Shown here one piece after another: positions 1,269 to 31,845 of a stretch of DNA of 34,271 nucleotides. Each line of letters starts with the position of its first letter. Position 1 is the stretch's first letter. Under the pieces are notes generated by a model. It was not told the origin of the DNA, searched no databases, and was given only the letters and a program-made list of their open reading frames with translations. The DNA lies in contig PLEQ01000232.1 in assembly GCA_003136475.1 (NCBI GenBank), forward strand, positions 1 through 34,271, read 5' to 3'. The position numbers and the translations under genes were made by a program. Origin of the DNA: Deltaproteobacteria bacterium (GTDB taxonomy: Bacteria > Bdellovibrionota_B > Oligoflexia > Oligoflexales > Bog-1112).

Positions 1269-1287
1269 CTTAATCTCTATATATCAT

Positions 1288-1296
1288 ATAAGATTG
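1288..1296 (-). promoter_or_regulatory. Putative phage late promoter CAATCTTAT
   Basis: Exact copy of the recurrent motif (ATAAGATTG on +), about 20 nt upstream of the endonuclease ATG in a 32-bp gap. Confidence 0.75.
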
Positions 1297-1300
1297 ATGC

Positions 1301-2158
1301 TTATGCCGTTAGGGATACCGTATAGCAATTAATGGCATAATTGCCCGAAAGAGTGTCCACGTTCCAACTAAAAGTAACGGTTGTATCAGTTTTACCTGTA
1401 ATTACAATAGGTTGAAATTGTGGATTAGCGTCTGTCAGATTTTGCATAGTGGCGATTACCCCATAACCCGTAGTTCCATAATTAATGGGTAAAGTGGCAG
1501 TGGCCGTAAGGGCCCCATTTCCAACGATAGCCTGGGAATTTGCTCCAATAAAATATGGCTGAATATAGTTAACACTAGAAGTAGGCACATTTACGGAAGT
1601 AGTCTCTGCAGTTGTAGACGATGCGGTAATAACTACAGTTTGAAATTGTGGATTAGAATCGACAATGTTTTGCATCCCAGTAACAACGCCGAAACCAGAT
1701 TCTTGGGAGAACGTATAGGTGGTAGTTGAACTAGTAGATGCGTTCCCAAATGACGTTTCGCCTTCCACAAATGGTTTAGGGACAATTATATAAGAAATTA
1801 TGTAATTATTTGTATCTAAAGGAGAATTCCATTCAACGACGAATCCCGTTGTGGTCTTACTGGTAACTTCTGCCATTTGAAATTGAGGATTAGGATCTAC
1901 TAAATTCTCAAACATGGCGAATACTACGTAAGAAATGTCTGGTTGAGAACTAATAGTAGCTGTATATGAGGTAGTCCCCAACCCACTAGTCAAAGATACT
2001 TGTTTGGCAACGTATCCAGCACTGCCGGTAATACCAGAAAGAGCGGCATTGATTAAAGATAGAATGTCGGCCAAATTGTCTCCTGCAGGGGATCCAATAT
2101 TGGAAAGTGCCGCTCTGTTAATTACCTGTCTACTGTCTAATGGTTTATAGCTACTCAT
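1301..2158 (-). CDS. Virion/fibre-associated protein with three tandem ~80-aa beta modules (H-type-lectin-like fibre-tip-type domain)
   Basis: Three repeats: YVVFAMFENLVDPNPQFQ..VTSKTTTGF..W, FGVVTGMQNIVDSNPQFQ..IT, YGVIATMQNLTDANPQFQ..ITGKTDTTVTFSW. Lies in the fibre gene cluster. Confidence 0.65.
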   Translation of the reverse strand: MSSYKPLDSRQVINRAALSNIGSPAGDNLADILSLINAALSGITGSAGYVAKQVSLTSGLGTTSYTATISSQPDISYVVFAMFENLVDPNPQFQMAEVTSKTTTGFVVEWNSPLDTNNYIISYIIVPKPFVEGETSFGNASTSSTTTYTFSQESGFGVVTGMQNIVDSNPQFQTVVITASSTTAETTSVNVPTSSVNYIQPYFIGANSQAIVGNGALTATATLPINYGTTGYGVIATMQNLTDANPQFQPIVITGKTDTTVTFSWNVDTLSGNYAINCYTVSLTA

Positions 2159-2167
2159 AAATTCTCA

Positions 2168-3112
2168 TTAATTATTGGCAATAGCCTGCCAGTGCAATAC
2201 GTAGTTGGCAGTAGCAGTTCCAACGTTCCAGGATGCCGTAAAGCCTGTAGTGGCCTGAGCTGTTATTGTAACTGATTGGTATTGTGGGTTGGTATCGGTA
2301 GTGTTTAGTAGATTTGCTACAACTGAATAGTTCGTACTACCAAATGCCGTACTGAACGTAATTGCTTTTGATGTTGCAGCACTGCTAAGAGTGGCAGATC
2401 CTGAAAAAATTCCCAACATTGTTAGGACTTGGGCCGTCGTCAAGTCGCTTGGTGTAGCTGGTGAACCAGTATTGTTCCCTTTTACGGTATTTGCTGCCAT
2501 GCTATTTAGGTTAGCGTTTGTAATAGCAGCAGAACCGGAAAGATTTGTATTTGTAAGCCCAGTAATAGTATTGCTACCAGCAGCAATGGTTTTATTTGTG
2601 AGAGTTTGAGCCAAAGACAAAACTGCTACAGTATCGGTACCAGTTATATTGGGAAAATTTAAATTTTGGGAAGTACTTTGGTTGGCAGATAAGGTAAGTT
2701 GGGTCCCAGTGGTACTTCCACTTGTACTAATTTGCAGTTTCTTAGTCGCATCAGTAACGTCTTCAAATAATGCGAATGTCTGAATTGTTGTTCCAGAACC
2801 ATTAATTGCGGCTCCATTAATGATAGGGGATGTTTGAAAAACAACTTTTCCGGTACCAGTAGTTCCAGTTACGGCAGTACCTGTAATAGCAGCAACAGTG
2901 GTAGATATTGATCCACTACTACCCGTTCCGGTTACATCGGAAGTAAGAGTAATAGTCGGCAAATCACTAGCAGCTAATGACCTAAAAGCTGCTCCGCCAC
3001 TGCCAGTAGCGGCTAGAACCTGAACGGAAGTAGCGGCACCGGACCCAATGTCCGTTCCTTGGACTTGGGTAGCCGTAGGTTTTCCGGTGACTAGTTTTTG
3101 AAAATTACTCAT
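2168..3112 (-). CDS. Tail-fibre-like protein with a C-terminal H-type-lectin-like domain
   Basis: T/S/G-rich; fibre motifs AQTLTNKTI and MAANTVKGNNTG...DLT..QV..ML; C-terminus ITFSTAF...YSVV...NPQYQ...TTGFT.SW...WQAI. Confidence 0.75.
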   Translation of the reverse strand: MSNFQKLVTGKPTATQVQGTDIGSGAATSVQVLAATGSGGAAFRSLAASDLPTITLTSDVTGTGSSGSISTTVAAITGTAVTGTTGTGKVVFQTSPIINGAAINGSGTTIQTFALFEDVTDATKKLQISTSGSTTGTQLTLSANQSTSQNLNFPNITGTDTVAVLSLAQTLTNKTIAAGSNTITGLTNTNLSGSAAITNANLNSMAANTVKGNNTGSPATPSDLTTAQVLTMLGIFSGSATLSSAATSKAITFSTAFGSTNYSVVANLLNTTDTNPQYQSVTITAQATTGFTASWNVGTATANYVLHWQAIANN

Positions 3113-3125
3113 ATCCGCCTTATAT

Positions 3126-3134
3126 CATAGATTT
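3126..3134 (-). promoter_or_regulatory. Possible degenerate late promoter (AAATCTATG)
   Basis: Only the AATCT core is conserved. It sits about 14 nt upstream of ATG 3112 and shares the downstream ATGATATA context with the copy at 1288. Confidence 0.3.
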
Positions 3135-5745
3135 ACGCAACGCCAACGAATACTGGCCAGACATCGATAACGTTAGAAGTCACAGTTGCACTTCGAGTCT
3201 GAACGATACCAATCCTAGTAACGGCTTGGCCACTCGAAGAAGGAGCGGTTGTAGAAAAGGTTCCGCTTGCAGTCAAGAAAACTGCCAATCCGTCTGTAGT
3301 TGCACCGAATGCGCTATCAGAAGAGCTTAGAGCAAACGATCCCGCAGTCGTTACCGTAATATTTTGACCAGCGGATACTGCCGTACCAGAAGAGGCCATA
3401 CCTATCACGTACATAAGGTCGTGTGAGCTTGTCGTAATGTCCGCAGCATACACTCTGGTTGACGTTTCGCTATTAGCAGTAATGCCCCAACGAACCGCAT
3501 ATGAGGTGTTAGCACTGAATGATTGACCAGCAACTAAGGTCCTCTTCAACGAAGGAGCATTTAAAACCTCAATAGTACTACCAGAACCGTTTTGATCGGT
3601 AGTAATGCCATCCGTTACGGCTCCTAGTTTTGCTGCAGTGACTGCACCAGCTTGAATAGTGGTTGCTCCAGAAGCAACAATCGCCACATCGCCAGACATA
3701 GCAACATCAGCTGCGACATTTGATCCATTACCAACCAAGATGTGATTAGTGGTTAGGGCAATAGAACCTGGAGTTACTGATGGAGCAGCCCAAACAGGAA
3801 CACCACCCGCGACCGTTAATACATTTCCAGTACTACCAATAGCAAGATTTGCATAGGTGTTAGTTCCATTACCATAGATTAATCCGCCGGTAGAAGTAGC
3901 TGGAGCAAGAGCGTTAAAGGCAGTTGCTGCGCTAGTTTGTCCCGTACCACCATGAGCGATATCGATAGCCGTACCATTCCAAACACCAGTAGCAATAGTT
4001 CCAAGGCTAGTTAGGCTAGAATTTACTACGGTGCTGTTTAGGGTAGTTCCTGAAAGGGTTCCCGCAGGAGCAACTACAGCATTACCACTGGCAGCTGTAA
4101 TCAAACCCTTAGCATTTACCGTGAAAGAAGGAATCGACGTAGAAGATCCAAAAGATCCGACGTTTGAGTTAACAGTAGCAAGAGTGGCGGCTGAACTACC
4201 AGGACCAGAGGCAGTTACGTCTCCAGTCAATGCAGTGATATAGCTACCCGCAGGTTGTTTATTTTTAAAGGTATTCCAATCAACTGAACTCAAATAACCA
4301 TCTGTAGAAGTAGTTGATTGAGTAATGCTTACCGTGCGACCGGTTAATACGAGCGGTGCGCTAAAAGTATAAGCAGTAGGACCCGCAAACTCAGTAAATG
4401 TAGCCGTTGGAACTGCTGAATTTGCAACGAATGCGCTATCAGCATAAACTGTACCGTTTAATACTAACCAAGCATCGCCAGCCGCATTTGGTAAGCCATT
4501 AGCGGTCAATACATAAGCGGTACCAATTCCAGTCACGGCATATTCACCATTTTGAGAAGCCGTGGTTTGGTTGCCGAGAATTACTAGATCGCCATTCTGA
4601 ACAGAATAACCATCAATAGTTAGGGTAGCAGCGCCAGTTAGTGGAACATTGGAGTTGGCATACGCCTGAGCTGGACCTTTCCAAGTTAATCCACTAATCG
4701 CGGCTTGCAATTGTCCTAGATTGACTGCATCGCCCGAAGACGTACCGTTAGCAACGTTATTGATCTGATTGCTATTCATATTAACGGTGCTAGAGAACGA
4801 TCCAGCTGCCGCATTTAGAGTTCCAGTGAAAGTTGGAGATGCGCTTAGAGCAACCGTGGAACCAGTACCAGTGGTAGTAGCTGCGATAAGGGCCGTACCA
4901 TTGCCAGCTAGAACTGGTGTATTAAGAGTCGTTTCAATAGTAATAGCAGGAGTGGAAGTAGCAGTTGCAACGGTTCCAGCGAAACCATTTGTAGATACTA
5001 CGGAAACAGAAGTAACCGTTCCACCAGTAGCTGGAGCAGCCCAAACAGGTAGGCCACCAGAAACAGTTAGTACTTGTCCGGTAGAACCGATTGGCAATCT
5101 GTCTGGAGCAGGAGTCGAATTTTCAAAAGTCAAGTCGCCAGCAGTAGTCATTGGAGACATGTTGACTTGGGCAGCAGCTTTAGAGGCAGCGTTTGTACCA
5201 CCATTGGCATAAGGAAGGACGCCAGTTACACCACTAGTTAGTGGTAGACCAGTAGCGTTAGTGAGTACTAACGCAGTAGGAGTTCCCAAAGCCGGGGTAA
5301 CCAAGGTTGGTGATGTAGCTAATACAACCGATCCAGAACCAGTCGTAGAAGCTGCAGAAATAGCTGTACCATTACCTTGTAGAATGCCCGTAATGGTCGT
5401 AGAAAGAGTCAATGCTGGGGTTGTTCCGCCCGATGACGTGCCAGCAAAACCGTTCGTTGAATTAACGGATATTGACGTTACCGCTCCAGTAGAAAGAGGA
5501 ACCCAAGTTAAAACGCCGGTACCGTCATTAGAAAGAGTATAGCTTGAAGAAGCTGCTTGAGCCGCAGGCCAAACAATCGAGTATGTGGAAGTCGTAGCAG
5601 AAGCGGAAATTACGATGTGGCCAGACGTAGAACCGTCCATTTGAAGGCCAGAACCTCCTAATTCCAGTATGTTACCGGCTGTTGAGAGGTTTACACTACG
5701 CTGTGCGCCATTAACTAATGCGCTAAATGTTGAGTAATTGGCCAT
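3133..5745 (-). CDS. Long fibre protein (tail or head fibre), 870 aa
   Basis: T/S/G/A-rich with internal duplications (VTSISVNSTNGFAG / VTSVSVVSTNGFAG; IGSTGQVLTVSGGLPVWAAP / IGSTGNVLTVAGGVPVWAAP). Has a YadA-stalk-like motif (QINNVANGTSSGDAVNLGQL), a TVNAKGLITAAS fibre motif and a C-terminal cement/DUF2190-like beta domain. Confidence 0.8.
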   Translation of the reverse strand: MANYSTFSALVNGAQRSVNLSTAGNILELGGSGLQMDGSTSGHIVISASATTSTYSIVWPAAQAASSSYTLSNDGTGVLTWVPLSTGAVTSISVNSTNGFAGTSSGGTTPALTLSTTITGILQGNGTAISAASTTGSGSVVLATSPTLVTPALGTPTALVLTNATGLPLTSGVTGVLPYANGGTNAASKAAAQVNMSPMTTAGDLTFENSTPAPDRLPIGSTGQVLTVSGGLPVWAAPATGGTVTSVSVVSTNGFAGTVATATSTPAITIETTLNTPVLAGNGTALIAATTTGTGSTVALSASPTFTGTLNAAAGSFSSTVNMNSNQINNVANGTSSGDAVNLGQLQAAISGLTWKGPAQAYANSNVPLTGAATLTIDGYSVQNGDLVILGNQTTASQNGEYAVTGIGTAYVLTANGLPNAAGDAWLVLNGTVYADSAFVANSAVPTATFTEFAGPTAYTFSAPLVLTGRTVSITQSTTSTDGYLSSVDWNTFKNKQPAGSYITALTGDVTASGPGSSAATLATVNSNVGSFGSSTSIPSFTVNAKGLITAASGNAVVAPAGTLSGTTLNSTVVNSSLTSLGTIATGVWNGTAIDIAHGGTGQTSAATAFNALAPATSTGGLIYGNGTNTYANLAIGSTGNVLTVAGGVPVWAAPSVTPGSIALTTNHILVGNGSNVAADVAMSGDVAIVASGATTIQAGAVTAAKLGAVTDGITTDQNGSGSTIEVLNAPSLKRTLVAGQSFSANTSYAVRWGITANSETSTRVYAADITTSSHDLMYVIGMASSGTAVSAGQNITVTTAGSFALSSSDSAFGATTDGLAVFLTASGTFSTTAPSSSGQAVTRIGIVQTRSATVTSNVIDVWPVFVGVA

Positions 5746-5788
5746 TTTAAATTTCCCTTATAAGTATTTCGGAGGACTTGTTATAGAG

Positions 5789-5797
5789 TAAAGATTG
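5789..5797 (-). promoter_or_regulatory. Putative late promoter variant CAATCTTTA
   Basis: 7/9 match with the CAATCTT core intact, in the 96-bp gap about 44 nt upstream of the 870-aa fibre gene. Confidence 0.6.
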
Positions 5798-5841
5798 CTT
5801 TCATTAGTTTTAACCATTCTTTAATCAATTAAAACCATGGG

Positions 5842-6297
5842 TTATAGTACGCCAACAATTTGGGTGAAGAGAGAAATATCGAATTCGGAAGGGTTAGCTT
5901 CATTAGGAACTAAAACGCCCATAAAAATAGCGGCATATCCAGATAGAAACCCATTTACTCCAACAGAGGGAACTATATTAGTTGGATTAGCGTCTATACC
6001 AATATATAGGGGGGTTCCTAAGGGATACGAATTAGTATTTGTGTATAATTTTAATCTACCGTTGGAGATGACTCCGCCCAAAGCTGAGGCCGGAATACGA
6101 AATTGTGCATATCCTACCCAATTATCCCAACTGGCTTGATTTGATACATCTAACGGAACAATTAAGCCTGAGGAATTAACGGAACATGCCATAGCTTGGG
6201 GAATGGCCGTGATGGCAGAGGCATTGGTGTAAGTAGTTAATAGGCCTTCTGAAGTTCCTGTAGATTGTGGATTGAACGATACTGGACTATATGACAT
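5842..6297 (-). CDS. Small virion protein, cement/DUF2190-like fold
   Basis: Pattern NAS...IP....V...G......VG.A...I.....G.V...G....GTPLYIG resembles the C-terminal domain of the adjacent 870-aa fibre. GGAG RBS lies inside the end of the upstream endonuclease gene. Confidence 0.55.
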   Translation of the reverse strand: MSYSPVSFNPQSTGTSEGLLTTYTNASAITAIPQAMACSVNSSGLIVPLDVSNQASWDNWVGYAQFRIPASALGGVISNGRLKLYTNTNSYPLGTPLYIGIDANPTNIVPSVGVNGFLSGYAAIFMGVLVPNEANPSEFDISLFTQIVGVL

Positions 6298-6990
6298 TTA
6301 ATTGTTCTCCACTTTTATGAAAGTATACCCATTTACTTGTTTGTATTTTCCATTAGTTACTGAGGAAATATTACCTTTGCTTATTTTTAATCTTCGAGAG
6401 GCGTCACCTATAGAGTTAAAACTAATACTGAGTTCAGGACAAAATATTTTTATTTTTCTTTTTTCATTACAATTTTTAAATATAGTTTTTGAAGCTTCAG
6501 ATGGGAATTTACCAAAACTATGGTGTTTTTGTCCCTTTACAGATTCTGAATGCTTCGTTCTAGATTCTAAGGATCTTTTTTTGCCCTTATTAGCCATAGA
6601 TATTTTAAGTTTAGATTCCGAAGTGTGTTTTTTACCAAACCAGTAGGATTTTTCTCTTTTTTTAGATTCGGACATCTTCCGTTTTGTCTCTTCGGAAACT
6701 ACGTGATTGTTTCCTCCTGTATGCAAATTATATCCATTAGGAGACAAGGTATTATGGTATTCTATAAAATACTCTTCTGCATTATTGAGATCCTGAATAT
6801 TATTGTAGATACCAATAATCTCTTTATAAAAAGAATTTATGCCATTCTTTTTAATGGCATTATAAATATAAATTGAATGTCTTTTATCTTGGCAATGCTC
6901 TTTCCACCTAATCTCAAAATCTCTTATAGTTTGTCCTATATAGGATTTTCCGCTGATCTTATCGGTTATTTTATAAATAACGCCAAACAT
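6298..6990 (-). CDS. Free-standing GIY-YIG homing endonuclease (NUMOD3/NUMOD1-type C-terminus)
   Basis: GVIYKIT...SYIGQT...RWKEH; AEEYFIEYHNTLSPNGYNL; SEETKRKMSES, FGKKHTSESKLKIS; FNSIGDASR.L.I..GNIS. Paralogue of 546..1268. Confidence 0.92.
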   Translation of the reverse strand: MFGVIYKITDKISGKSYIGQTIRDFEIRWKEHCQDKRHSIYIYNAIKKNGINSFYKEIIGIYNNIQDLNNAEEYFIEYHNTLSPNGYNLHTGGNNHVVSEETKRKMSESKKREKSYWFGKKHTSESKLKISMANKGKKRSLESRTKHSESVKGQKHHSFGKFPSEASKTIFKNCNEKRKIKIFCPELSISFNSIGDASRRLKISKGNISSVTNGKYKQVNGYTFIKVENN

Positions 6991-6991
6991 A

Positions 6992-9943
6992 TTAAAATAC
7001 CCACCAGCCTGAAGATCCGTTAGCTATAAAGGAAGCTGATTGATATTGCACACTTTGAATAAAAGAGCTATTGCCATCTATAGTATCAGATCCTGAAGTT
7101 ATAATAGTTAAAGTGTTGGGGGTACTGTCTATTTTTTTACAGTATATGATTCTTCCAATATTTGGGGAAGACAAAAATAAAGTAAAAGTAATCGGCCCAG
7201 AAGTACAATCTGCTGCCAAGAAACAATCGGTATTTAAAATAGTATAATTACCAGTCTTAATACTAATAGCAACCGGACCCGTTGCACTATTTGCTCCAGG
7301 AGGACCTTGTGGACCAGTTGGGCCAGCTGGACCTGGGGGTCCTTCTCCGCCACCGCCGCCACCGCCACCGCCAGCACCGATTCGGAATTCTACTTCATCT
7401 CCTATAACTAAACCACCGCCGGGAAGGGTAAGGATTTGAATTTGATTGGATGGAGACCCAGTAGCACCAACTTCGGAATACGCTCCGGACTCGATGTCCA
7501 TGAATTGGCCATTTAAATATACCTGTAGGGTTCCTTTTCCTACAGTATATTGAGCTAGAGTATCGCCCTCTCTAGAATTTAGAGGTATGGTTATAATAGT
7601 ACCGTTAGCTACTGGACCATTTAAGGAGGATGGCGGCGTAGCACCGGAGGCAACAATTTCAATTACCTCATCGTAGGTCGGAGAATCCAGAGATGCGAAA
7701 AGATTTCCTAGAGCTTGATCAAGTTCTTTAATAGCGAGAGTTAAATTATCGCCATCCTTAATAACATAATTGCCAACACCAGTTCCAGATTGTGCTGTTG
7801 ATATAGTAAATGGGGCGCCAACATTACCATTAGAAGCATTGTTGCTAGTTCCAGCAGAAGTATTGGTTACAACTACTGTACCTACTCCGGCGACAGCGCT
7901 AAAATCATAAGGAGGAAATGTATTAAAAGCATTTGCTAATTTAGTAGCTACAGCTGTAGCAGTATCTGAGCTTAGAATGTCTACTTCAATAGCGTCATTG
8001 GTATTTGGTACAGTAGGAGCAGTTCCTGAACCACTGACTTTAAACCAGACTATATATTGTCTAGCATCAGCAGATGAATTAATCAAAAAGTATTGACTTG
8101 GACTAATAGTAGAGCCAGAACCGATAGTAATGTCTGTAATTTGAGGTACTGAGCCAGGATCTAAAGCGGAAACATATTTAGGACTAGCTGAAGCCGCAGA
8201 TGGAGATCCAATGTATTGGAGGAGTTCAAGAGAAGTAGTACCAGAAACTTCCACGGATTCGCCGTTATCCAATTCATGAGATAAAAATCTAATGTAAACT
8301 CGTGGTGCGCCACCATTATCTTCGCGCATAAATAACCAGAAAACATTCCCGCCAGCTGGAACAGTCGCTCTAGAAGAAATGTAAATGTCTCTGGTTGTGG
8401 TAGGAGTTGGAACAGCCAGATAGCTGCCAAAGGCGTACTGTGCTGGTGCGCCAACCGCTCCCGTGTTATCCCCAGAAGAAACATTCGAAGTCAATGTTAC
8501 TTGAGAAACTGAATCTACAGTTAAGATCTGATAATATCCAGCAATGGGATCAGAACTAAGCTTAATGTAGTCACCGGCTAGTAAGCCTGGAGTCCAACTA
8601 GCAGAGCCTACTGAAGTTACAGTTGGAGAACCTGCAACAAAAATAAGTTTTGGAATAATTGGTTGATCACGAATCAATGTAATATATGCAACTTGATCAT
8701 CAGAAAGAGTGATGTCTGAAGATGAGGGGTTGGCTGCTAGTACATAGGAAAGTTCAGATCCAACTACACGGATATCGATAGGATCATCCCAGTTAATTTG
8801 GCCAGGAACAGTGATGACGCTTGGACTATAAAAAGTAATTCCAATGCCAGTCCCATTAAGGGTAGCGGTCTGAGACATTGTAATAGTAGAGCCAGAAATA
8901 CTGATGATGGTAGTTTGGCTGGGAATACCGGTGCCAAAAATATAGTCTCCGTTTGATAAGCCCGCAGTTGAGGCTAGAGACGTAAGTTGATTACTTCCCG
9001 ACGTAATGTTTCCAGTAGTAACTAGAAGAGGATCTGAATTAGGCAAAATACCATTTGAGATCTCGCCTGGTCCAGTAATTACAGTGTTGCCAAGATCTTG
9101 GTATAGAGATAATAATGTAGGAAGTGAAGGAGATGGAGGGGTTGGTGTAGGTCCACTAAACCAGAAAGGAGTTCCTTTAATCTCCAGAAGGGTAGACATG
9201 ATAGCATTCATCCAATCCTTCATGGATGCTAGCTGTTTGTCGCCACCTACGAATGGATCTACTGAATTAGAAGTAGTTGTAACTGGAGACTGAGTCCTAC
9301 CTTCGCTCCACGGATACACGAAATTGGGATTAGGGTTCAATCCACCAGTCTCTAAACTGCAGAGCATCCAGCGACAATCGCTTATAGATACTACATTTCC
9401 ATTTCCATCAGTAACGACTTCAGCTATTGGAAGAACGTTTACGGCCCACACACTAGTTGTAATGTATATTTTAAATGTTAGAGTTTGTGCCGCTGGAGCA
9501 ATTACTGGAGTTTCATCATTAGCGGCAGCGTTCCAAATGTATTTAGTTACGTCGGTTGAAGAATCTGCAAACCTTACATAGTCGATTCCAACGTAGTTGG
9601 TGCTATTGGCAGTAAAAGATCCTGAAATATTGGTATTTGTGGCCGCATTGAGGGTTTGATTGGGTGTTCCCTCTGGAACCTGAAAAATCGTACCGGAAAC
9701 ACTGGCATTAATATTTAAAACAGCACCTGGATCTACTTGTAATTGTAGGCCATTTGCTGGGGAACCGATAGCTCCAGACGTAACTATACCAAAACCACGG
9801 ACAATATATCCCTGACTAGTTCCTGTCCAGATACCAGTTACTAACTCGTCGAAATCATTACGAACGCCAGATTCGATGCGCCTTGCATCAGAAATATCGT
9901 ATCTTTGTTCTGACAAAAGGTTAGAAGTAGTTAAAATAGCCAT
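6992..9943 (-). CDS. Baseplate-associated / fibre-attachment structural protein with a poly-Gly and collagen-like segment, 983 aa
   Basis: N-terminus (YIVRGF.I...LQLQVDPG..L...NYVGIDY) resembles baseplate-peripheral proteins. Followed by beta-rich modules, G9-EGPPGPAGPTGPQGPPG, and the common fibre C-terminal domain KTGNYT...D....DCTSGPITFTL....GR....KKIDS..N...I....DTIDG. Confidence 0.7.
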   Translation of the reverse strand: MAILTTSNLLSEQRYDISDARRIESGVRNDFDELVTGIWTGTSQGYIVRGFGIVTSGAIGSPANGLQLQVDPGAVLNINASVSGTIFQVPEGTPNQTLNAATNTNISGSFTANSTNYVGIDYVRFADSSTDVTKYIWNAAANDETPVIAPAAQTLTFKIYITTSVWAVNVLPIAEVVTDGNGNVVSISDCRWMLCSLETGGLNPNPNFVYPWSEGRTQSPVTTTSNSVDPFVGGDKQLASMKDWMNAIMSTLLEIKGTPFWFSGPTPTPPSPSLPTLLSLYQDLGNTVITGPGEISNGILPNSDPLLVTTGNITSGSNQLTSLASTAGLSNGDYIFGTGIPSQTTIISISGSTITMSQTATLNGTGIGITFYSPSVITVPGQINWDDPIDIRVVGSELSYVLAANPSSSDITLSDDQVAYITLIRDQPIIPKLIFVAGSPTVTSVGSASWTPGLLAGDYIKLSSDPIAGYYQILTVDSVSQVTLTSNVSSGDNTGAVGAPAQYAFGSYLAVPTPTTTRDIYISSRATVPAGGNVFWLFMREDNGGAPRVYIRFLSHELDNGESVEVSGTTSLELLQYIGSPSAASASPKYVSALDPGSVPQITDITIGSGSTISPSQYFLINSSADARQYIVWFKVSGSGTAPTVPNTNDAIEVDILSSDTATAVATKLANAFNTFPPYDFSAVAGVGTVVVTNTSAGTSNNASNGNVGAPFTISTAQSGTGVGNYVIKDGDNLTLAIKELDQALGNLFASLDSPTYDEVIEIVASGATPPSSLNGPVANGTIITIPLNSREGDTLAQYTVGKGTLQVYLNGQFMDIESGAYSEVGATGSPSNQIQILTLPGGGLVIGDEVEFRIGAGGGGGGGGGEGPPGPAGPTGPQGPPGANSATGPVAISIKTGNYTILNTDCFLAADCTSGPITFTLFLSSPNIGRIIYCKKIDSTPNTLTIITSGSDTIDGNSSFIQSVQYQSASFIANGSSGWWVF
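7293..7373 (-). repeat. Poly-glycine (GGY)n codon run followed by a short collagen Gly-X-Y repeat
   Basis: ccgccaccgccgccaccgccaccgcc on + at about 7347-7372; the adjacent sequence encodes GPPGPAGPTGPQGPPGA. Confidence 0.85.
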
Positions 9944-9962
9944 CGATAAAGCCCCTTACTCA

Positions 9963-9971
9963 ATAAGATTG
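9963..9971 (-). promoter_or_regulatory. Putative late promoter CAATCTTAT
   Basis: Exact copy about 20 nt upstream of ATG 9943, followed by an AAGGGG RBS. Confidence 0.8.
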
Positions 9972-10009
9972 TCACCTATCCTATATCGTATTTAGCATTT
10001 CATTGGCTT

Positions 10010-10018
10010 CAATCTTAT
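10010..10018 (+). promoter_or_regulatory. Putative late promoter CAATCTTAT on the plus strand (back-to-back with 9963-9971)
   Basis: Exact copy in the opposite orientation, about 26 nt upstream of GTG 10044, which has an AGGAG RBS. Confidence 0.7.
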
Positions 10019-10043
10019 GATAGGATATCTACAGGAGACTGTT

Positions 10044-10427
10044 GTGGCCAAAAATACCCGTGGAAGCAAAGAATTCACCCGTGAACAACGCCTCATAAAG
10101 GAAAATCGGCAATTAAAACGAGAGCTTGCTCATCTTCGCAAACAAATAACTAGAATAGACGTAGACCGATTTGAAACCATCAAAGAAATGGTTACGGACT
10201 ACCAAGAGGCTGAGAGGCTTCAGGAAAATCTAGGAAATCCCAATTCCAATATAGAGGCCTTGAAGAAACAATGGGAGTGTAGGGATTGTGGTACCGGAAC
10301 ATTGGAAATAAGTCTTTATTCAAAGATGGGGCAAACTTTTTATTATAGGAAGTGCAACAATTGTCCCAAGAGAACCAAAGGTCAGCGTTACGATAGCAAT
10401 TCAGTTAAGGGAATTATTAAGAAATGA
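10044..10427 (+). CDS. Coiled-coil plus C-terminal zinc-ribbon protein
   Basis: Start moved from 10017 to the in-frame GTG 10044 (AGGAG at 10033-10037; ATG 10017 overlaps the promoter motif). Heptads LIKENRQLKRELAHLRKQI; CRDC...KCNNC. Confidence 0.8.
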   Translation: MAKNTRGSKEFTREQRLIKENRQLKRELAHLRKQITRIDVDRFETIKEMVTDYQEAERLQENLGNPNSNIEALKKQWECRDCGTGTLEISLYSKMGQTFYYRKCNNCPKRTKGQRYDSNSVKGIIKK

Positions 10428-10624
10428 TGTTTGAAGAAGGTTCGGTTATTATTTTGGCACACACTCTACAACTCGGCACAATTATTCATATGGGACAAGA
10501 CGTGTGGGTGCTCCTAACTTGTGGAGATATTTGGGTTGGAAATCAAAGAGAAATTCGATTTCCCCAGGATCAAGCCGATTTAGATGCTTGCGTACTTAAC
10601 GTAGATAAGTTTAAAGGACGTTAA
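10424..10624 (+). CDS. Hypothetical protein, 66 aa
   Basis: ATGA overlap with the upstream gene; abuts the next gene. Confidence 0.65.
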   Translation: MMFEEGSVIILAHTLQLGTIIHMGQDVWVLLTCGDIWVGNQREIRFPQDQADLDACVLNVDKFKGR

Positions 10625-10834
10625 ATGGCTATTACAATACATTTTGCTGGGATGATCCTTAAATATCCAAGTGGGAGTGGTCCAAGAACTTGCCAGGGAT
10701 GTGGAGGATCGGCTTATGCGCATTATGGAGAAGATAGGGACGGCGGATTTTTCTATCTAGAAACTTGTTTCGAAGGTTGGAATCCCAAAGAACCCGAAAA
10801 AAGTATTCCGTGTACAAAAGTTTTAGTTAAGTAA
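10625..10834 (+). CDS. Hypothetical small Cys-containing protein, 69 aa
   Basis: AAGGA RBS, CQGC motif; stop overlaps the stop of the convergent gene. Confidence 0.6.
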   Translation: MAITIHFAGMILKYPSGSGPRTCQGCGGSAYAHYGEDRDGGFFYLETCFEGWNPKEPEKSIPCTKVLVK

Positions 10835-11573: not shown

Positions 11574-11577
11574 ATAT

Positions 11578-11586
11578 ATAAGATTG
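11578..11586 (-). promoter_or_regulatory. Putative late promoter CAATCTTAT
   Basis: Exact copy; the minus strand reads CAATCTTAT-ATAT-ATG. Confidence 0.78.
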
Positions 11587-11612
11587 ACTTCGTAATAAAA
11601 TCAGGATATAGT
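11584..11612 (+). promoter_or_regulatory. Sigma70-type promoter TTGACT-17-TATAGT
   Basis: 5/6 and 5/6 matches to consensus with optimal 17-nt spacing; ATG 11620 follows 7 nt after the -10. Confidence 0.75.
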
Positions 11613-11619
11613 TAAGAAT

Positions 11620-12051: not shown

Positions 12052-12062
12052 AAAAGAATATC

Positions 12063-13622: not shown

Positions 13623-13625
13623 ATA

Positions 13626-15566: not shown

Positions 15567-15567
15567 G

Positions 15568-21900: not shown

Positions 21901-21921
21901 ACTTTATATTAAATCTCCTAC

Positions 21922-21954
21922 AAATAAGATTGTGGGTTGCCAAATCTTATTTTT
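21922..21954. terminator. Inverted repeat / possible terminator overlapping a late promoter
   Basis: AAATAAGATT-gtgggttgcca-AATCTTATTT (10-bp arms, 11-nt loop), ending in a T5 run on the plus strand. The stem is AT-rich. Confidence 0.45.
21924..21932 (-). promoter_or_regulatory. Putative late promoter CAATCTTAT
   Basis: Exact copy about 24 nt upstream of the J-like ATG, followed by TAGGAG. Confidence 0.8.
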
Positions 21955-21993
21955 CTAGGTTTTTGTGTACCATAATTGTTATATATCACAGGC

Positions 21994-24630
21994 TTATAGT
22001 TGTGATGTAGGTAATTGGAATGATACCGGAAAAACTCCCTGAATGCCGCTTAGCCCCACCCCTAAATTAATTACTAGACTTGGGGGTGTAATTAGTACTT
22101 GTAATCCGGAAATATTAGAAAAACGAGGATCAGCTGTAATTAAGTTCGTGATTTCATTATATATATCAGAAGCAGATGTGTCAGAAACCATAGTTCCAGG
22201 CTTAGTCCCCAATCCAAAGCTTGGATTGGACAAATCGCTCCCAAGTGGTGTTCCAAATTTAATGGCTAAAGCCTGTATTAGATTAGGAAGTCCGGCAGCC
22301 AATTGAAAGTCTCCGGTATTGTTTACAGCTAAATCGCCTTGTGGAGTCAATAACCAAGATACTTTGGATAATCCTACCAAATCTACATTGGCAACACTGC
22401 TAGGAATTGTAATTTGGTCGTCTGCGGTAGTCTGGAGATCAGAAGGAATCCAAATTACGTTTTGGGAATTTACAGTGCCGGGTAAATAGGCCTGTAAATA
22501 CGCTTGATTAGCGGTCGTAAATGTGTCCAAATTTGGTAGTCCATCCAACGTTATAAGAAAACTAGTTTGTGACAGAGACACTATGTTTATAATAGTACGA
22601 GCAACTGGATTTTGGTTGTTTGCATAGAGATATATGGTTTGGCCAATAAAAAGATCTGTATCGGAGCCTACTACAATATTTCTGCCATCGGCATTAGATA
22701 ATAAAGAATACTGGAATCCATCCGGATCTATATATGGCTCTTGTAAGAAATTTAATGTAGCTATCTCCAACCATCTAGCAGAATCTCCTAAATATCTCTG
22801 CGCAATTTGTTCCATATTCAGTCCTGCTGGAACTGGAACCTGAATTTTGGAGTTAGAAATAGAAAATTCAATTCCAGAAGTTGCGGCTAGAGCATTGACA
22901 TATTCCATATTATTTAAAATTTGATTGTTATCAAGCTGATTGGTTGCAGTCAATATGTCATAACTTTCAACTAATTCATAAAATGATTGTAAGATATAGT
23001 ACTGATCCAGAGTCATGGTATTTTCAGTTGCAATAGGGGGAGGCGTATTGAAAAGTGTGCTATAGTACGAATCACCAGCACCAAAAGAAGTTTCTAATTG
23101 GGTGCATAGTGTAAGAATAACCCCACGCATTGTTTTCAAATTTGCAACCGTAAAATTGCTTACAGTATTTAATTCATTACTAAGAGCTGTTGATTGGGCA
23201 GTATTTAATGTTAAGCTATTTACGGGAACTTGGCTAAAAAGCATTGGATTCTGCAGAGGATTGGCAAATATCGTACTTGATGGGTTTAACGTAGAAGATG
23301 CAATTGCATTAGGTCCCAACTGACCATTTGCTACTGCGGCTGAAGAAAGGCCTTCATTTTTTTGTTGCAAGGCTTGTACGTTAGATAAATTGGTTTGCGT
23401 GGTATTGTCAGTAGCCGCTGGACCAAAGAGATTGTTTGGGTTAACAGTAGATAAAAAATTTGATATAGTGCTTTGAGCATCTTTGGTTAATTGAGCCGGC
23501 AAATCATTAACGGCTAAAGCTACTCCCGCCAATTGTTTTACAAAAATTCCGGTCTGTCGAATGATGTTTAAAATATTGTCAACATCTGACCTAACGGCCC
23601 CGATCAAATTGGTTGCAGCAGCCGCAGTATTTTGTGCAGCTTGAATTATATTTAGTATATTCTGGAGTACGCCAGGACCAAGAGGCGTTACTTGAAGTGG
23701 GACGGCGACTAGGTTATCATTTAAGTTAACCCTGCGCCATGCTTTAAATTGTAGGTTGTAGTCAATTTGCAAGGGCTTATTTGCATTTTCATTCCAAGTA
23801 AATCCTACTGGTGTGACTACGAAACTTTGATTCTGTTTGGGGATATCAAAGACCAAACGCCACCCGGCATTATCGGGATTTCTTTTGGCTTCAGCGTATT
23901 GTTCCAAAAACTGAGTTAGCATGAGAGTCTGATAATAACCAGTACCCAGACCATTTTCGGGATCTTGGGGATCTCCTGGTCTTATAGTAGTAGGTTTAGA
24001 CGCATTAGAGCCATTAGTGACGTTGTTAATAATTGATTGAAATTGAGTGGCAACGTTTTGTGCGGCCCCTATGGTACCACCAAAAACGGACTGAAGTATG
24101 TTGGGCGTTCCTGGAGGATTAACAGTTGAAGGTCTTCCGGGCCATACGCCAAAAGTTCCTTGAATAGAGATATTCTTAAAACGAACTCCGGAATGTTCTT
24201 CTAAGATACCACGTAAAGTAGCGGAAGTATTAATAGAATATGCATCTGTAATAGACAATTGTTGTGGAGTTATAGGCAAAAAGAATTCCCAGGCCGTACT
24301 CAATGGAGTAAAAGCCAAAGTACCGTTGCCAAGTGGGTTGACCGTAACTTTTGAAGGTAGGTTGCCCCCAACTACCTGATTATTGTTGGAAGTGTCTATA
24401 ACAACAAGCCTATAGGGTACTAGCTTATCCCAGAGTTCCCCTTTGGGAGACAAATATTGAAAAAATGTACTGTTTACAATAGGTTGAGCATTAGAATTGG
24501 GCGCAGTAGTAGGACCGGCATTGGGAACTACTGCCCAAGGGAGGTTACCGAACAAGGAACTGCCTCCTGGAGGCGCCGTAAGGCTTCCTAAAGCTGAACT
24601 AAGACCTAAAGAATCAAGTAAGCCTGGCAT
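21994..24630 (-). CDS. Baseplate fusion protein: tube-initiator-like N-terminus + LysM + gp25/gpW-like C-terminus
   Basis: FFLPITPQQLSI...ISIQGTFG and F.W......L...Y.L.F (gp48/gp54/gpU-type); GLNMEQIAQRYLGDSARWLEIATLN.L..P (LysM); GDL....GDFQLAAGLPNLIQAL...F.TPLGS...NPSFG...I...I.ADPRF (gp25-like). ATG 24630 is preferred over TTG 24633 given the AGGGG RBS. Confidence 0.78.
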   Translation of the reverse strand: MPGLLDSLGLSSALGSLTAPPGGSSLFGNLPWAVVPNAGPTTAPNSNAQPIVNSTFFQYLSPKGELWDKLVPYRLVVIDTSNNNQVVGGNLPSKVTVNPLGNGTLAFTPLSTAWEFFLPITPQQLSITDAYSINTSATLRGILEEHSGVRFKNISIQGTFGVWPGRPSTVNPPGTPNILQSVFGGTIGAAQNVATQFQSIINNVTNGSNASKPTTIRPGDPQDPENGLGTGYYQTLMLTQFLEQYAEAKRNPDNAGWRLVFDIPKQNQSFVVTPVGFTWNENANKPLQIDYNLQFKAWRRVNLNDNLVAVPLQVTPLGPGVLQNILNIIQAAQNTAAAATNLIGAVRSDVDNILNIIRQTGIFVKQLAGVALAVNDLPAQLTKDAQSTISNFLSTVNPNNLFGPAATDNTTQTNLSNVQALQQKNEGLSSAAVANGQLGPNAIASSTLNPSSTIFANPLQNPMLFSQVPVNSLTLNTAQSTALSNELNTVSNFTVANLKTMRGVILTLCTQLETSFGAGDSYYSTLFNTPPPIATENTMTLDQYYILQSFYELVESYDILTATNQLDNNQILNNMEYVNALAATSGIEFSISNSKIQVPVPAGLNMEQIAQRYLGDSARWLEIATLNFLQEPYIDPDGFQYSLLSNADGRNIVVGSDTDLFIGQTIYLYANNQNPVARTIINIVSLSQTSFLITLDGLPNLDTFTTANQAYLQAYLPGTVNSQNVIWIPSDLQTTADDQITIPSSVANVDLVGLSKVSWLLTPQGDLAVNNTGDFQLAAGLPNLIQALAIKFGTPLGSDLSNPSFGLGTKPGTMVSDTSASDIYNEITNLITADPRFSNISGLQVLITPPSLVINLGVGLSGIQGVFPVSFQLPTSQL

Positions 24631-24644
24631 CAAATACCCCTACA

Positions 24645-24653
24645 ATAAGATTG
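24645..24653 (-). promoter_or_regulatory. Putative late promoter CAATCTTAT
   Basis: Exact copy about 15 nt upstream of ATG 24630. Confidence 0.8.
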
Positions 24654-24717
24654 TCAGTTCCTTCATAATCGATATATCAGAGATAAGACCAGGGTATTTC
24701 TATGATATATAAGAAAC

Positions 24718-25257
24718 ATGAGAATTTTAAGATCTATACTAATCGGAACTCTTCTCGGACTATTATTGTCTTGTGCCATGATGTTTAGGGAAGTGAGACC
24801 TGTACCCAATTATAAGGGCGTGGATCAGGAAGCAATCCCATACGTTAATGAATGGCTTGAGCTGGCCAAATTAAATGGGATTACTTTTTACAATACGGTA
24901 ACCGTAGGATTCTCGAACATAGAGAGATCAGAGGTTATTGGCGAATGTAATTATTCTTATTTTTTTAGAGAAATCGATTTAGATCAAACTTATTGGAAAA
25001 CTTTTACTAAAATTCGGAAAACAGCATTATTGTATCACGAACTAACACATTGTTATTGTGGTAGAAAGCATGACTATGCTGTCGGTAAAGAATATGACAA
25101 CAACGAACGTCCTTGGTTTCCGTTAAAACGCGAAGGATTTTTTCTAGATGGATGTCCTCTGAGTCTTATGTATCCATACGTAGTTGAAGATTCTTGTTTT
25201 ATTTCTCACTATGCAGAATATACAAAAGAAATGTATAATCGCTGTGAGCCATTCTAA
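24718..25257 (+). CDS. Predicted lipoprotein zinc metallopeptidase (metzincin-like)
   Basis: MRILR + hydrophobic stretch + LLSC lipobox; HELTHCYCGRKH zinc motif; SLMYP Met-turn. Confidence 0.8.
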   Translation: MRILRSILIGTLLGLLLSCAMMFREVRPVPNYKGVDQEAIPYVNEWLELAKLNGITFYNTVTVGFSNIERSEVIGECNYSYFFREIDLDQTYWKTFTKIRKTALLYHELTHCYCGRKHDYAVGKEYDNNERPWFPLKREGFFLDGCPLSLMYPYVVEDSCFISHYAEYTKEMYNRCEPF

Positions 25258-25604
25258 TGATGACCAAACATGAAACAGATCTAGTCAGATTAGTGTATGC
25301 TCGATTCATGGAATCGGAAGATGATACTTGGGGAGACATAGACTGTAATCTGGAAATGTTTGATTGGCTCTCTGACAAAGAATTAATAGAAGAAACAAGA
25401 ATAAAAATTTTAGAGCATTCAAGGGGAACATTTAGGTGTGCGCAAAATCACGAGCAAGGCATTTGCTTTGCCCCTTTAGTATTAGAAGCCGTAATTGCCA
25501 TAAACAAGTTATATGAAGAGACCGGAAGATTACACGAAAAAAATAGATATATTTTGACCTATTATCTTTCAATGAGTGAATTACGTTTAATATACGTTTT
25601 TTAG
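25257..25604 (+). CDS. Hypothetical acidic protein, 115 aa
   Basis: TAATG coupling to the peptidase gene; no recognised motif. Confidence 0.72.
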   Translation: MMTKHETDLVRLVYARFMESEDDTWGDIDCNLEMFDWLSDKELIEETRIKILEHSRGTFRCAQNHEQGICFAPLVLEAVIAINKLYEETGRLHEKNRYILTYYLSMSELRLIYVF

Positions 25605-25864
25605 TGAAGACGCATTTGTTGAATAGACATTCCAGCAATTAAGTCTAAGGCGTATTTGCGATCCTTTTCTGTACCATCTTTTACTATTCCAGATAGGTCT
25701 TTCAAAGCATTATTGTACACCTTAATAACTTCTAGTTTAGTGAATAGAAAAAAATTGTCTTCGCACAAAAAATCTCCACCAAATTGCACGCAATAATAAT
25801 TCCTTTCCATTCTTTCTACTTCTTGTTCTGTATATCCAATATATGCTGATTTTTTTTTGCCCAT
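25601..25864 (-). CDS. Hypothetical protein, 87 aa
   Basis: TAAGGT RBS; last gene of the TMP-hub-spike operon; stop overlaps the convergent gene. Confidence 0.7.
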   Translation of the reverse strand: MGKKKSAYIGYTEQEVERMERNYYCVQFGGDFLCEDNFFLFTKLEVIKVYNNALKDLSGIVKDGTEKDRKYALDLIAGMSIQQMRLH

Positions 25865-25872
25865 ATTTTACC

Positions 25873-26580: not shown

Positions 26581-26581
26581 G

Positions 26582-29463: not shown

Positions 29464-29465
29464 AG

Positions 29466-31763
29466 TTATTTACCAATCGTAGCCTGTAACTGTAGATCGC
29501 CGTTATTCATAGTCATCGGTCCTGTACCCCTGTCTAATGGATATCCGGACTCAAAATTTCTTTGGGCTGGCATCACTCTTTCATTGTAATATTTTTCAGC
29601 CAATGGGTTATTTTCCGTTTTCATTTTATTGTACGTATTATAAAATTTCTGTAATTCTTCTGAATGGCCAGAGAAAGCGCCGGAAGCTTTGGCGGCATTT
29701 GTAGCTACTGTACCTAATATCTCAGATAGCGTTTTTAATGAAACTCCCGCTTCTCCTGCGGCTGCGCCGACCAACTGATCTAGGCTTCTTCCAGTTCCTT
29801 CTGCTCCAGCCCCAAGTTCTTTAGATGTCTGAGCTTCATAATCTTTTCTTAATTTGGTAGTGCCTGGCATTCCTTCCATCCCTTGTATGGCTTGCCCGAC
29901 AAGAAACTGCTGCATCTTTTGTGGACTAGCACCTTGCATTTGGGGATTAAAAGCGGATGTACTAGCGGCGAGATCTTTATATACACTCATCACTGTAGGA
30001 GAAAGAGTAGGGTTATATCCAGCAGTTGAGCCGCCGTGTTCTCCAGCGTATTTGGCAATATCTTTACCTAGAAGATCTAGTTTGCCTTGTGCCCCCGGTG
30101 CAACTAAACCAGAAGCCTGGGCTCCAGCTTTATTGATCTGACTTTGAAATTGTTCTGCTGTTAATGCGGTTTTTCTTCCTTTATTTGCGGCAAGTAATTG
30201 TGATTGAAACTCTGGACTATTAACGTCCAAATTGCCTCTGGTCTCAATCATTCTTTGAAGGACTAAGGGATTTCCTCCAGAAGCCTTCATAAGATCCGGA
30301 AAGTTTCTCATTATTACAGCCGCGTTAATTGCTCCAGTTCTGCCGGATGTTTCTGTGGTAGTACCCTTATAAGCTTCATATGCAGATCTTGCGTTTTCCA
30401 AACCCTTCATGGTATTGGCACCAGTAGCGAAATTGCCCATCTGATCTGCAATATTTGCAGCACCTGCTCTAGAAGTGACGCCAGATTGACTAACTACTTC
30501 TGCAACATTTTGTATGAATTTGCTATTTTCTGCAGCAAATTTTGATTTGTCCAATCCCATGGCTTGGGCGGTAGAAAAAATATCTATCAAGGCAGCCTTA
30601 CTAGTTTCAGCACTTCCCAAAGTACCGCTCAATGAGCCCAAAACATTTGTCGAGTTATTCAAATTCAGGCTACGCTGAGCTTGCAATGCCAGTACTGAAC
30701 CACGACCCATAGAGGTAGATCCACCGGCCCCCATAATACTGCTTGTAGCTTGCATACCTTGTTCTGGCATAAAACCAGCATTGGTGGACGACTGTAGATA
30801 TCCAAATAGGTCCTTATCATTAAGTCCCAATGTTCTTTGGGCACCTAAATATCCTGTAGCATTTCCTTGAAGTCTTTCGATAGCATCTCTCTTAAATGGA
30901 TCCTGTGCTTTTAGGCCTTCAAGAGCAGTATTTCTATTTTGGGCAAATTCTTGCCCCTGCATGGCATTATATTTTTCTGGATTAAAGGCTAGCGCTCTAC
31001 CCCTTTCGGTTAATAGGCCCACACCTAAAAAATCTTTTATGGTATCTAAGGTTTTAGTTCTATCCTGTTCTGTTTGGGCCATTTCGCCAGCCCTTTTTCT
31101 TTCTCCCCCGAATATGCTTTCGTAAACAAATTGTCCAGATTGCATTTGAGAAAGAGTTTGGCCAGTAGTCCCAGCGATTGCTGCGCCACGCATTTGGGTG
31201 GTTATTATTGGAGATCTAATCGCCTCTCCTACGACTTCCATGACCTTGTTAATCATCATGGCAGCAGAACCGCCAATAACCGCTGACATGGCGCCCTTAC
31301 TTAACATCTCTCCAAAACCACCACCGCCACCAGTTGCAGCTGGCTTAGATGGCATCACGCCTCTAGCCCTATCAAATGCTTTTTGAGACTCCTGTAATCT
31401 AGTTTGAAGAACTTGCTGGGTATTTTGTAAAGACTGGAGATCTCTCTCTGCTTTCAAACGCTTATTGGCTACTTCTAAGCCTTCTTTTTCTAACTTAGTG
31501 ATTCTTGCGATCTGAGCTTCTTTTTTTGCAAGGTCTCTGTTAATCTGTTCTAATCCAGCTTTTTCTTGTTTTATTTTTTGGTCTAAAGCCCTACTGGTCT
31601 GTGAAGCTTCTTTAATAGATTCTATGCTGGGAGCCATCTTCTGAGCAGCGGGTCCTAACTTTAGCTTTTGGGATTCCTTATCGATCTTAGATATGGCATC
31701 CTTAACCGCATTTAAGAGTTCAGTGGCATCACCTGAAATTTTGAGTTTAACGTCATTTGCCAT
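29466..31763 (-). CDS. Tape-measure-like protein, 765 aa
   Basis: MANDVKLKISGDA start, N-terminal coiled coil, then an Ala/Gly/Gln/Met-rich helical body; directly upstream of the hub gene. Confidence 0.72.
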   Translation of the reverse strand: MANDVKLKISGDATELLNAVKDAISKIDKESQKLKLGPAAQKMAPSIESIKEASQTSRALDQKIKQEKAGLEQINRDLAKKEAQIARITKLEKEGLEVANKRLKAERDLQSLQNTQQVLQTRLQESQKAFDRARGVMPSKPAATGGGGGFGEMLSKGAMSAVIGGSAAMMINKVMEVVGEAIRSPIITTQMRGAAIAGTTGQTLSQMQSGQFVYESIFGGERKRAGEMAQTEQDRTKTLDTIKDFLGVGLLTERGRALAFNPEKYNAMQGQEFAQNRNTALEGLKAQDPFKRDAIERLQGNATGYLGAQRTLGLNDKDLFGYLQSSTNAGFMPEQGMQATSSIMGAGGSTSMGRGSVLALQAQRSLNLNNSTNVLGSLSGTLGSAETSKAALIDIFSTAQAMGLDKSKFAAENSKFIQNVAEVVSQSGVTSRAGAANIADQMGNFATGANTMKGLENARSAYEAYKGTTTETSGRTGAINAAVIMRNFPDLMKASGGNPLVLQRMIETRGNLDVNSPEFQSQLLAANKGRKTALTAEQFQSQINKAGAQASGLVAPGAQGKLDLLGKDIAKYAGEHGGSTAGYNPTLSPTVMSVYKDLAASTSAFNPQMQGASPQKMQQFLVGQAIQGMEGMPGTTKLRKDYEAQTSKELGAGAEGTGRSLDQLVGAAAGEAGVSLKTLSEILGTVATNAAKASGAFSGHSEELQKFYNTYNKMKTENNPLAEKYYNERVMPAQRNFESGYPLDRGTGPMTMNNGDLQLQATIGK

Positions 31764-31799
31764 TTAAATTGCCCCAGAACCGTTATAAGATACCATAAG

Positions 31800-31808
31800 A
31801 TAAGATTG
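31800..31808 (-). promoter_or_regulatory. Putative late promoter CAATCTTAT, with two extra partial ATCTTAT copies
   Basis: Exact copy about 37 nt upstream of ATG 31763; ATAAGAT also occurs at 31785 and 31795 on +. Confidence 0.78.
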
Positions 31809-31845
31809 TCGGTATTCCATATGCCTATATCATCCAAAATAATCA

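Follow-up and report, generated by a model that had tools for sequence, protein, structure and literature searches.

A single-box, promoter-like word at the heads of gene blocks in Mx1-like phages, and a divergent phage sigma factor as its candidate reader

The window analysed here is a complete metagenomic contig of 34,271 nucleotides (nt; contig C6, in a bin of 520 contigs) that encodes phage tail and baseplate proteins and carries, ahead of its gene blocks, a short recurrent word with the core CAATCTT. We propose, at a probability of roughly 70%, that CAATCTT is the single -10-type box of a phage-specific promoter class of Mx1-like phages, and that it is read by the phage's own sigma factor. 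A first-pass annotation of the window had suggested a single-box, phage-specific promoter and had predicted a phage-encoded sigma factor or RNA polymerase elsewhere in the genome. Computational evidence supports the former, as the box stands at block heads, is strand-specific, ranks top de novo and is conserved at orthologous positions; for the latter, a divergent sigma70-family gene lies on contig C54 of the same bin.

The products of the window include baseplate wedge/J-like, hub and assembly proteins, along with two GIY-YIG and one HNH homing endonuclease, a transglycosylase and a MazG-like enzyme. Long, tightly packed minus-strand gene blocks alternate with short plus-strand blocks of small genes, and the coding fraction of 0.96 leaves about 4% of the window non-coding. 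The word had originally been described as a 9-mer, CAATCTTAT, with seven exact copies and one variant matching at 7 of 9 positions, and all eight sites were recovered with the following positions and strands:

1288..1296, minus: CAATCTTAT box heading the GIY-YIG homing endonuclease gene 546-1268; predicted +1 at about 1283
5789..5797, minus: variant box CAATCTTTA with the core CAATCTT intact, heading 3133-5745 (870 amino acids (aa), Ig/head-decoration-like) and two genes packed behind it; predicted +1 at about 5784
9963..9971, minus: box in front of 6992-9943 (983 aa; homologous to Mx1 139197-141188) and its packed downstream genes; forms a divergent pair with the next box
10010..10018, plus: the sole plus-strand box, heading the small-gene block 10017/10044-10834; predicted +1 at about 10023
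11578..11586, minus: box with CAATCTT exactly 6 nt before the ATG of 10827-11573, without a Shine-Dalgarno sequence
21924..21932, minus: box heading 15568-21900 (2110 aa, baseplate wedge/J-like), 13626-15566 and 13188-13622
24645..24653, minus: box heading the baseplate hub gene 21994-24633 (likely start ATG 24630)
31800..31808, minus: box heading a five-gene block from 29466-31763 down to 25601-25864, including a baseplate-assembly-like protein

All eight lie in non-coding DNA, each co-oriented with its downstream gene, and for the minus-strand sites in order the called start lies 19, 43, 19, 4, 23, 11 and 36 nt beyond the end of the 9-mer. The estimate of less than one chance copy per window proved sound: the seven copies of CAATCTTAT compare with 0.67 expected, and none of 100 dinucleotide-preserving shuffles reached seven. 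Variants of the 9-mer with one mismatch are about as frequent as chance predicts: they add 13 sites, which makes 20 where 16.6 are expected, and 26 of 100 shuffles reach 20. It had further been claimed that minus-strand genes with an upstream gap of about 30 bp or more carry the box while packed ones do not, and we find the core in 7/7 gaps of at least 30 nt upstream of minus-strand genes and in none of the tightly packed junctions. At the plus-strand site ATG 10017 overlaps the box, and the in-frame GTG 10044, which follows AGGAG, is the likelier start. Two of the window's boxes recur at the same genes in Mx1, where the orthologue of 15568-21900 is preceded by CAATCTT (Mx1 129965) and the orthologue of the hub gene 21994-24633 has the exact 9-mer 4 nt ahead of it (Mx1 121392).

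The window does not stand alone in its bin. Three further contigs, C54 (69 kb), C279 and C429, are phage-like and share its GC content of about 40%; C54 carries genes for terminase, portal, major capsid protein, sheath, GroEL and a helicase, C279 for ribonucleotide reductase and a helicase, and C429 for DNA polymerase, primase and a recombinase. Among cultured phages, Myxococcus phage Mx1 is the nearest to them (47.8% identity in the capsid protein). A tblastn search of Mx1 open reading frames (ORFs) against the bin also uncovered a second Mx1-like phage of about 45% GC, on contigs C175, C316, C287, C271, C461, C249, C170 and C145, with its own terminase, portal, sheath and hub and with a sigma gene at C175:7135-8064. 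With two such phages present the bin is a mixture, and its 'host' assignment is doubtful. A search for further relatives with the single hub protein found none, and an alignment of the sigma factor gave 34 loci from IMG/VR.

These relatives shortened the motif. The recurrence of the 9-mer stood but its length did not: the functional core is CAATCTT, with an A after it (7-8 informative nt), and the consensus reads g-CAATCTT-A-w. The base following CAATCTT is A in 72% of gene-upstream sites against 19% of the others, and G is favoured just before the word. No position upstream of the box is conserved, and no -35 partner appears, in sets of 13 and of 68 sites, in agreement with the first-pass annotation; the information is confined to the consensus.

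CAATCTT emerges from the phage genomes without prior knowledge of the box. It is the top sense-strand 7-mer between -60 and +20 of ORF starts on C6, C54, C279 and C429, with 19 upstream copies against 25 elsewhere (1.56 expected upstream, z 13.9). In Mx1, at 55.5% GC, it ranks third among upstream 7-mers (10 against 22 elsewhere, 1.19 expected) and is present in 32 copies (25 on the plus strand), compared with six of the reversed control word. Thirteen plus-strand genes of Mx1 and no minus-strand gene have it directly before them (13/86 vs 0/164 coding sequences, Fisher p 5e-7; totals from PMC10720576), and the boxed genes include those for portal, prohead protease and tailspike as well as the orthologues of window genes 21994-24633 and 15568-21900. 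When this phage, the second phage of the bin, Mx1 and the 34 IMG/VR loci were pooled, a co-oriented ORF start lay -3 to 60 nt downstream of 59 of the 192 distinct CAATCTT sites, compared with 5/119, 2/109 and 9/215 for control words.

The same pattern holds in more distant genomes. Five complete IMG/VR relatives contain 79 copies of CAATCTTA against 31 of the reversed control, with strand biases of 0/6, 2/8, 2/19, 6/15 and 4/17, and in one of them a start codon follows 17 of 20 fetched CAATCTTA sites, as judged by eye. Upstream of the gene that follows terminase, the exact 7-mer is found in 15/21 distinct relatives and TAATCTTA in two more; in the remaining four the start estimates were misplaced. 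The spacer around this post-terminase box is not conserved among relatives. The host-like contigs of the bin (2.5 Mb) behave differently, since only 3 of their 75 CAATCTTA sites are gene-upstream, compared with 16/21 on C6, C54 and C279. In the 21-kb loci that surround the sigma gene, plain counts of the 7-mer show no enrichment (139 vs 116 for the control); few boxed genes lie in that region, and the signal is visible only with position-aware counts.

Distances from CAATCTT to the start codon show a sharp peak at exactly 6 nt (nine sites by ORF calls) and, apart from it, a broad group at about 15-35 nt. An ordinary Shine-Dalgarno sequence lies between box and start in the broad group, whereas the 6-nt sites are without one, as are further 6-nt sites in Mx1 (13010, 36550, 75276 and 121392) and five in a relative (G003). 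If AATCTT occupied -12 to -7, it would sit at the canonical distance from +1, and the 6-nt genes would then be leaderless; a register with CAATCT at -12 to -7 may apply instead. The exact spacing to ATG without a Shine-Dalgarno sequence thus fits a -10-type box with leaderless mRNAs, and for the box at 11578 the predicted +1 is the A of the ATG itself (11573). One metatranscriptome, run X8, contains about 10% of sampled window words, and for positions 5001-25000 it yielded 16 contigs of 165-344 nt, which lie inside structural genes and cannot show starts; run X13 yielded none.

Our candidate for the reader of the box is the product of C54:5314-6354 (minus strand; 346 aa, P0001), which we predict to be a sigma70-family factor lacking the -35-reading region 4.2. 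It is the syntenic orthologue (39% identity, E 3e-64) of a protein annotated in Mx1 (OR576727.2) as 'putative RNA polymerase sigma factor' (2071-3078, between helicase and phosphoesterase), and C54 and Mx1 have in common the gene order helicase, sigma, small protein, phosphoesterase. A family profile built from 119 members and compared with PDB yielded 67 hits at E<=0.01, the best of them at E 3e-11, and the 60 of these that were listed are all sigma factors; a second family profile gave 62 hits at E<=1, again with only sigma factors among the 60 matches listed. Region 2 homology appears both in the profile comparison and in a Foldseek search of the AlphaFold model (best E 2.1e-5, the best 50 listed hits all sigma chains). 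Regions 3 and 4.1 are covered by the profile alignment, in which positions 139-341 pair with RpoD residues 374-567 (617-aa chain) and end at '...VLRMRF', the start of region 4.2. The helix-turn-helix of region 4.2 itself is absent from the 22 aligned members, all of which stop at most 5 residues after 'LRLKG'. In keeping with this, the model, all-helical with a pLDDT of 79.5, ends in short helices at 311-328 and 333-341. The family is large: one database gave 697 hits and a second gave 401 clusters at 50% identity, and every relative carries the truncated sigma. Against PHROGs the only functional match at E<=1 was the generic phrog_351, 'RNA polymerase sigma factor' (E 1.8e-4).

The missing -35 reader did not turn up as a separate protein. 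The Sigma70_r4 family of Pfam has no match on C6, C54, C279 or C429, nor on any of the 103 small ORFs of these contigs searched for a sigma4-like mini-protein, and two ORFs near the DNA polymerase gene have no PDB match by phmmer, all in a phage assembly that is fragmented. The small conserved protein encoded directly downstream of the sigma gene (C54:4837-5292, minus strand; also present in 20 IMG/VR loci) was considered as the missing region 4.2 and rejected; it has no Pfam or PHROG hit and by eye looks GroES-like rather than like sigma region 4, and the phage also encodes GroEL. Separately, some members of the sigma family (P0173, P0176, P0184, P0194, P0204, P0215 and others) are 590-820 aa long and match in two stretches, with the break near residue 218, which suggests an insertion, possibly an intein, inside region 2. 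As for polymerases, the complete Mx1 genome has no Pfam domain of RNA polymerase beta or beta-prime (controls matched in 14/14 genomes), while a search for T7-type polymerases (PF00940) was uninformative, its control having matched nowhere.

The sigma gene lies behind a different word. The strongest upstream 7-mer in the 34 IMG/VR loci is a second single-box word, (ta)TGATATA, with 101 upstream copies against 102 elsewhere and a spacing mode to ATG of 8 nt (17 sites); with TATAnn taken as its hexamer, the ATG would fall at the same offset as in the 6-nt CAATCTT sites. Upstream of the sigma gene TGATATA is present in 27/27 distinct relatives and CAATCTT in 0/27. TGATATA probably marks an earlier promoter class, and the position of the sigma gene behind it, rather than behind CAATCTT, suggests a cascade. 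The sites in this phage are:

Window 24703-24709, plus: TGATATA, heading the plus-strand block at 24718
Window 3121-3127, minus: TGATATA
Window 1280-1286, minus: TGATATA
Window 31826-31832, minus: TGATATA
Window 24673-24679, minus: TGATATA
C54:6393, minus: TGATATA

Mx1 has a second word of its own, TAGATCAAC, which is unlike TGATATA and stands before minus-strand (non-structural) genes and in the tRNA region:

OR576727.2, e.g. 43245, 44652, 52238, 84524, 101831 and 125842: TAGATCAAC sites

CAATCTT is common to Mx1 and its low-GC relatives whereas the second word differs between them. The window also holds a canonical-looking two-box promoter on the plus strand at 31846-31873 (TTGACT, a spacer, then TG-g-TATTCT), ending 7 nt before ATG 31881 of a plus-strand small-gene block.

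Put together, these observations suggest a mechanism in which the core RNA polymerase of the host, carrying the phage sigma with its regions 2, 3 and 4.1, would bind the CAATCTT box alone and open the duplex at that point, with initiation about 7 nt beyond the last T. Boxes with an ATG at exactly 6 nt would yield leaderless mRNA, and other boxes would give a leader of 10-35 nt with a Shine-Dalgarno sequence. The earlier class marked by TGATATA would supply the phage sigma, which would in turn switch on the CAATCTT class, made up mainly of tail, baseplate, portal and sheath genes.

Several points weigh against this proposal. The promoter role, the reading by the phage sigma, the start position and the 'late' timing are all inferred. 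We take C6 and C54 to belong to one phage from their equal GC content and complementary gene content; the bin also contains a second Mx1-like phage. Pfam misses the sigma family (0/22 members at E<=0.1; the Mx1 protein reaches 19.5 bits where 24 are required), and in the profile alignment other residues stand in place of the aromatic ones with which sigma70 melts DNA. On the phage contigs 25 of 44 CAATCTT 7-mers are not gene-upstream, so the 7-mer by itself is insufficient. Nor is the original claim that the box heads each structural transcription unit borne out in full: the capsid operon has only an AATCTC variant, both in C54 (25873-25879, TAATCTC) and in Mx1 (~18260, CAATCTC), which may be a weaker or differently timed version of the box, and the terminase gene has no box before it. 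The box is thus not at the head of every structural unit, and it is found before non-structural genes too, namely homing endonucleases, the small ORFs 10017-10834 and a helicase-containing unit at C279:11385. From that claim the position at block heads survives, while 'each structural unit' and 'late' are too strong.

The link between the sigma and the box is one of co-occurrence only, and this leaves room for other readers. The box could be a promoter read by a primary or alternative host sigma, or by host polymerase with a phage activator. Its sequence could be laid out as a -10 hexamer in which A stands at -11 and T at -7, and single-box extended -10 promoters are read by primary sigmas, according to passages of PMC2988020. 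We nonetheless regard a host reader as unlikely. This 7-mer persists across phages of 34-55% GC, among them Mx1, which infects a host of 68.8% GC (PMC10720576), while the other promoter-like word changes from TAGATCAAC in Mx1 to TGATATA in this clade; the word is rarely gene-upstream (3/75) in the host-like contigs; and the truncated sigma accompanies the box in every relative. That last point also bears on the idea that the word is the site of another phage protein, either a late activator or repressor or a highly divergent phage RNA polymerase that went unrecognised. Such a protein could hide among the 187 of 250 Mx1 genes (about three-quarters) of no known function (PMC10720576), and divergent phage polymerases can escape Pfam; the PF00940 search was uninformative. 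This too seems improbable to us, given that complete Mx1 lacks beta and beta-prime domains in a search whose controls matched 14/14 genomes, that a conserved sigma with no -35 reader accounts directly for a one-box promoter, and that a dimeric regulator would be a poorer fit than a sigma for a short, asymmetric word standing at a constant, -10-like distance from leaderless ATGs.

The remaining explanations do without a promoter. The word might act on RNA, where it could direct processing or, 6 nt before some starts, serve as an unusual element for ribosome binding or translation enhancement, and 6 nt to ATG is indeed also a typical Shine-Dalgarno spacing, at sites that have no Shine-Dalgarno sequence. 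Most sites, however, lie 15-35 nt upstream with an ordinary Shine-Dalgarno in between, and the box is found only at block heads, not before packed internal genes that would need a translation signal equally; CAATCTT is not known to be complementary to the anti-Shine-Dalgarno sequence either. We think a role on RNA quite improbable. That the word is a chance or selfish repeat without a role in expression, carried for example by homing endonuclease genes, is the sort of reading we would give hardly any weight: several boxes do stand directly before free-standing GIY-YIG/HNH genes (window 1288, C175:1039, and loci L039, L054 and L066), but most stand before conserved virion genes at orthologous positions in distant relatives, 0/100 shuffles reach seven copies, and mobile endonuclease genes that carry a phage promoter are the simpler account.

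A promoter read by a phage sigma through one box has parallels. The T4 late promoter is 8 bp long with no upstream element and is served by gp55 plus gp33, a split sigma, according to passages of PMC2988020. The arrangement described here resembles it in having one box of about 8 bp, no -35 and a place before virion genes, with a putative reader of the sigma family encoded by the phage. It differs in the word, which is CAATCTTA and not that of T4, and in the sigma, which at 346 aa with regions 2 to 4.1 is not a minimal, region-2 gp55 and whose PHROGs match is generic only. T4 late transcription also employs gp33 as a co-activator and the gp45 clamp, and no gp33-like partner turned up in the searches for small sigma4-like proteins described above. 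CAATCTT would work like T4 late transcription but is not a member of that system. By analogy with gp55 and gp33, the truncated sigma may be one half of a two-piece sigma.

Extended -10 promoters of primary sigma70 offer a second comparison. There, too, recognition is confined to the -10 region without need of a -35, and the geometry proposed here would match theirs, initiation falling about 7 nt past the hexamer. CAATCTT sites differ in having no TG at -15/-14, in a hexamer far from TATAAT and in not being gene-upstream in the host-like contigs; TGATATA is closer to the extended -10 type than CAATCTT is. The phiEco32 gp36 type likewise combines a phage-encoded sigma70-family factor with single-element middle and late promoters, although word, phage group and sigma family differ. 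Mx1 itself shares the orthologous sigma, the gene order and CAATCTT before 13 plus-strand genes, but has 55.5% GC and boxes without the AT extension seen in the window. The Mx1 genome announcement mentions neither promoters nor a sigma (PMC10720576), and literature searches, which excluded supplements, returned no description of this box or sigma family, the word itself giving only primer noise. Ma-LMM01 was considered and set aside as unrelated, judging from passages of PMC5780444.

Some observations lie beside the promoter question. Free-standing GIY-YIG/HNH genes are numerous in these phages (window 546-1268, 6298-6990 and 12063-12782; C175:1039; L039:2813, L054:883 and L066:4712), and several homing endonuclease genes carry their own CAATCTT box at 6-nt spacing, as if adopting a phage promoter. 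A DNA contig from another sample (run X2) skips 330 nt of the window at 11183-11514, inside gene 10827-11573; the 11183/11514 join has weak support, from one contig of depth 4 with a short side of 20 nt. On C429, 29587-29799 (minus strand; the same as L016:11587-11799) encodes 70 aa with an Acb2/Tad1 hairpin domain (E 2.4e-7, 31.3 bits against a cut-off of 27), a candidate anti-CBASS/Thoeris sponge. On C54, two adjacent ORFs at 8422-9713 (minus strand) match two halves of one transposase family (phrog_506) and sit between the helicase/sigma block and the HNH-GroEL-terminase block; they may be a split or frameshifted insertion sequence (IS) element inside the phage.

More tentatively, we suggest that throughout the family a -35-blind sigma drives a one-box promoter whose position would often make the A of the ATG the first base of the late mRNA. 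The choice of promoter would then also set the mode of translation initiation, as a built-in leaderless late programme, and the system would be portable between Myxococcus (68.8% GC) and the hosts of relatives with 34-47% GC. If the reading of CAATCTT by the phage sigma is confirmed, it would provide a map of gene regulation for a large phage group, widespread in soil and peat and with hardly any cultured members, in which the sigma-dependent gene class, the starts of transcription units and the leaderless genes become readable. It would also be a second, independently built example of the solution found in T4, in which a one-box promoter goes with a sigma that has no -35 reader. Both Mx1 and Myxococcus xanthus can be cultured and are amenable to genetics, which makes the prediction directly testable, and a short, host-independent pair of sigma and promoter could serve as an orthogonal expression switch.

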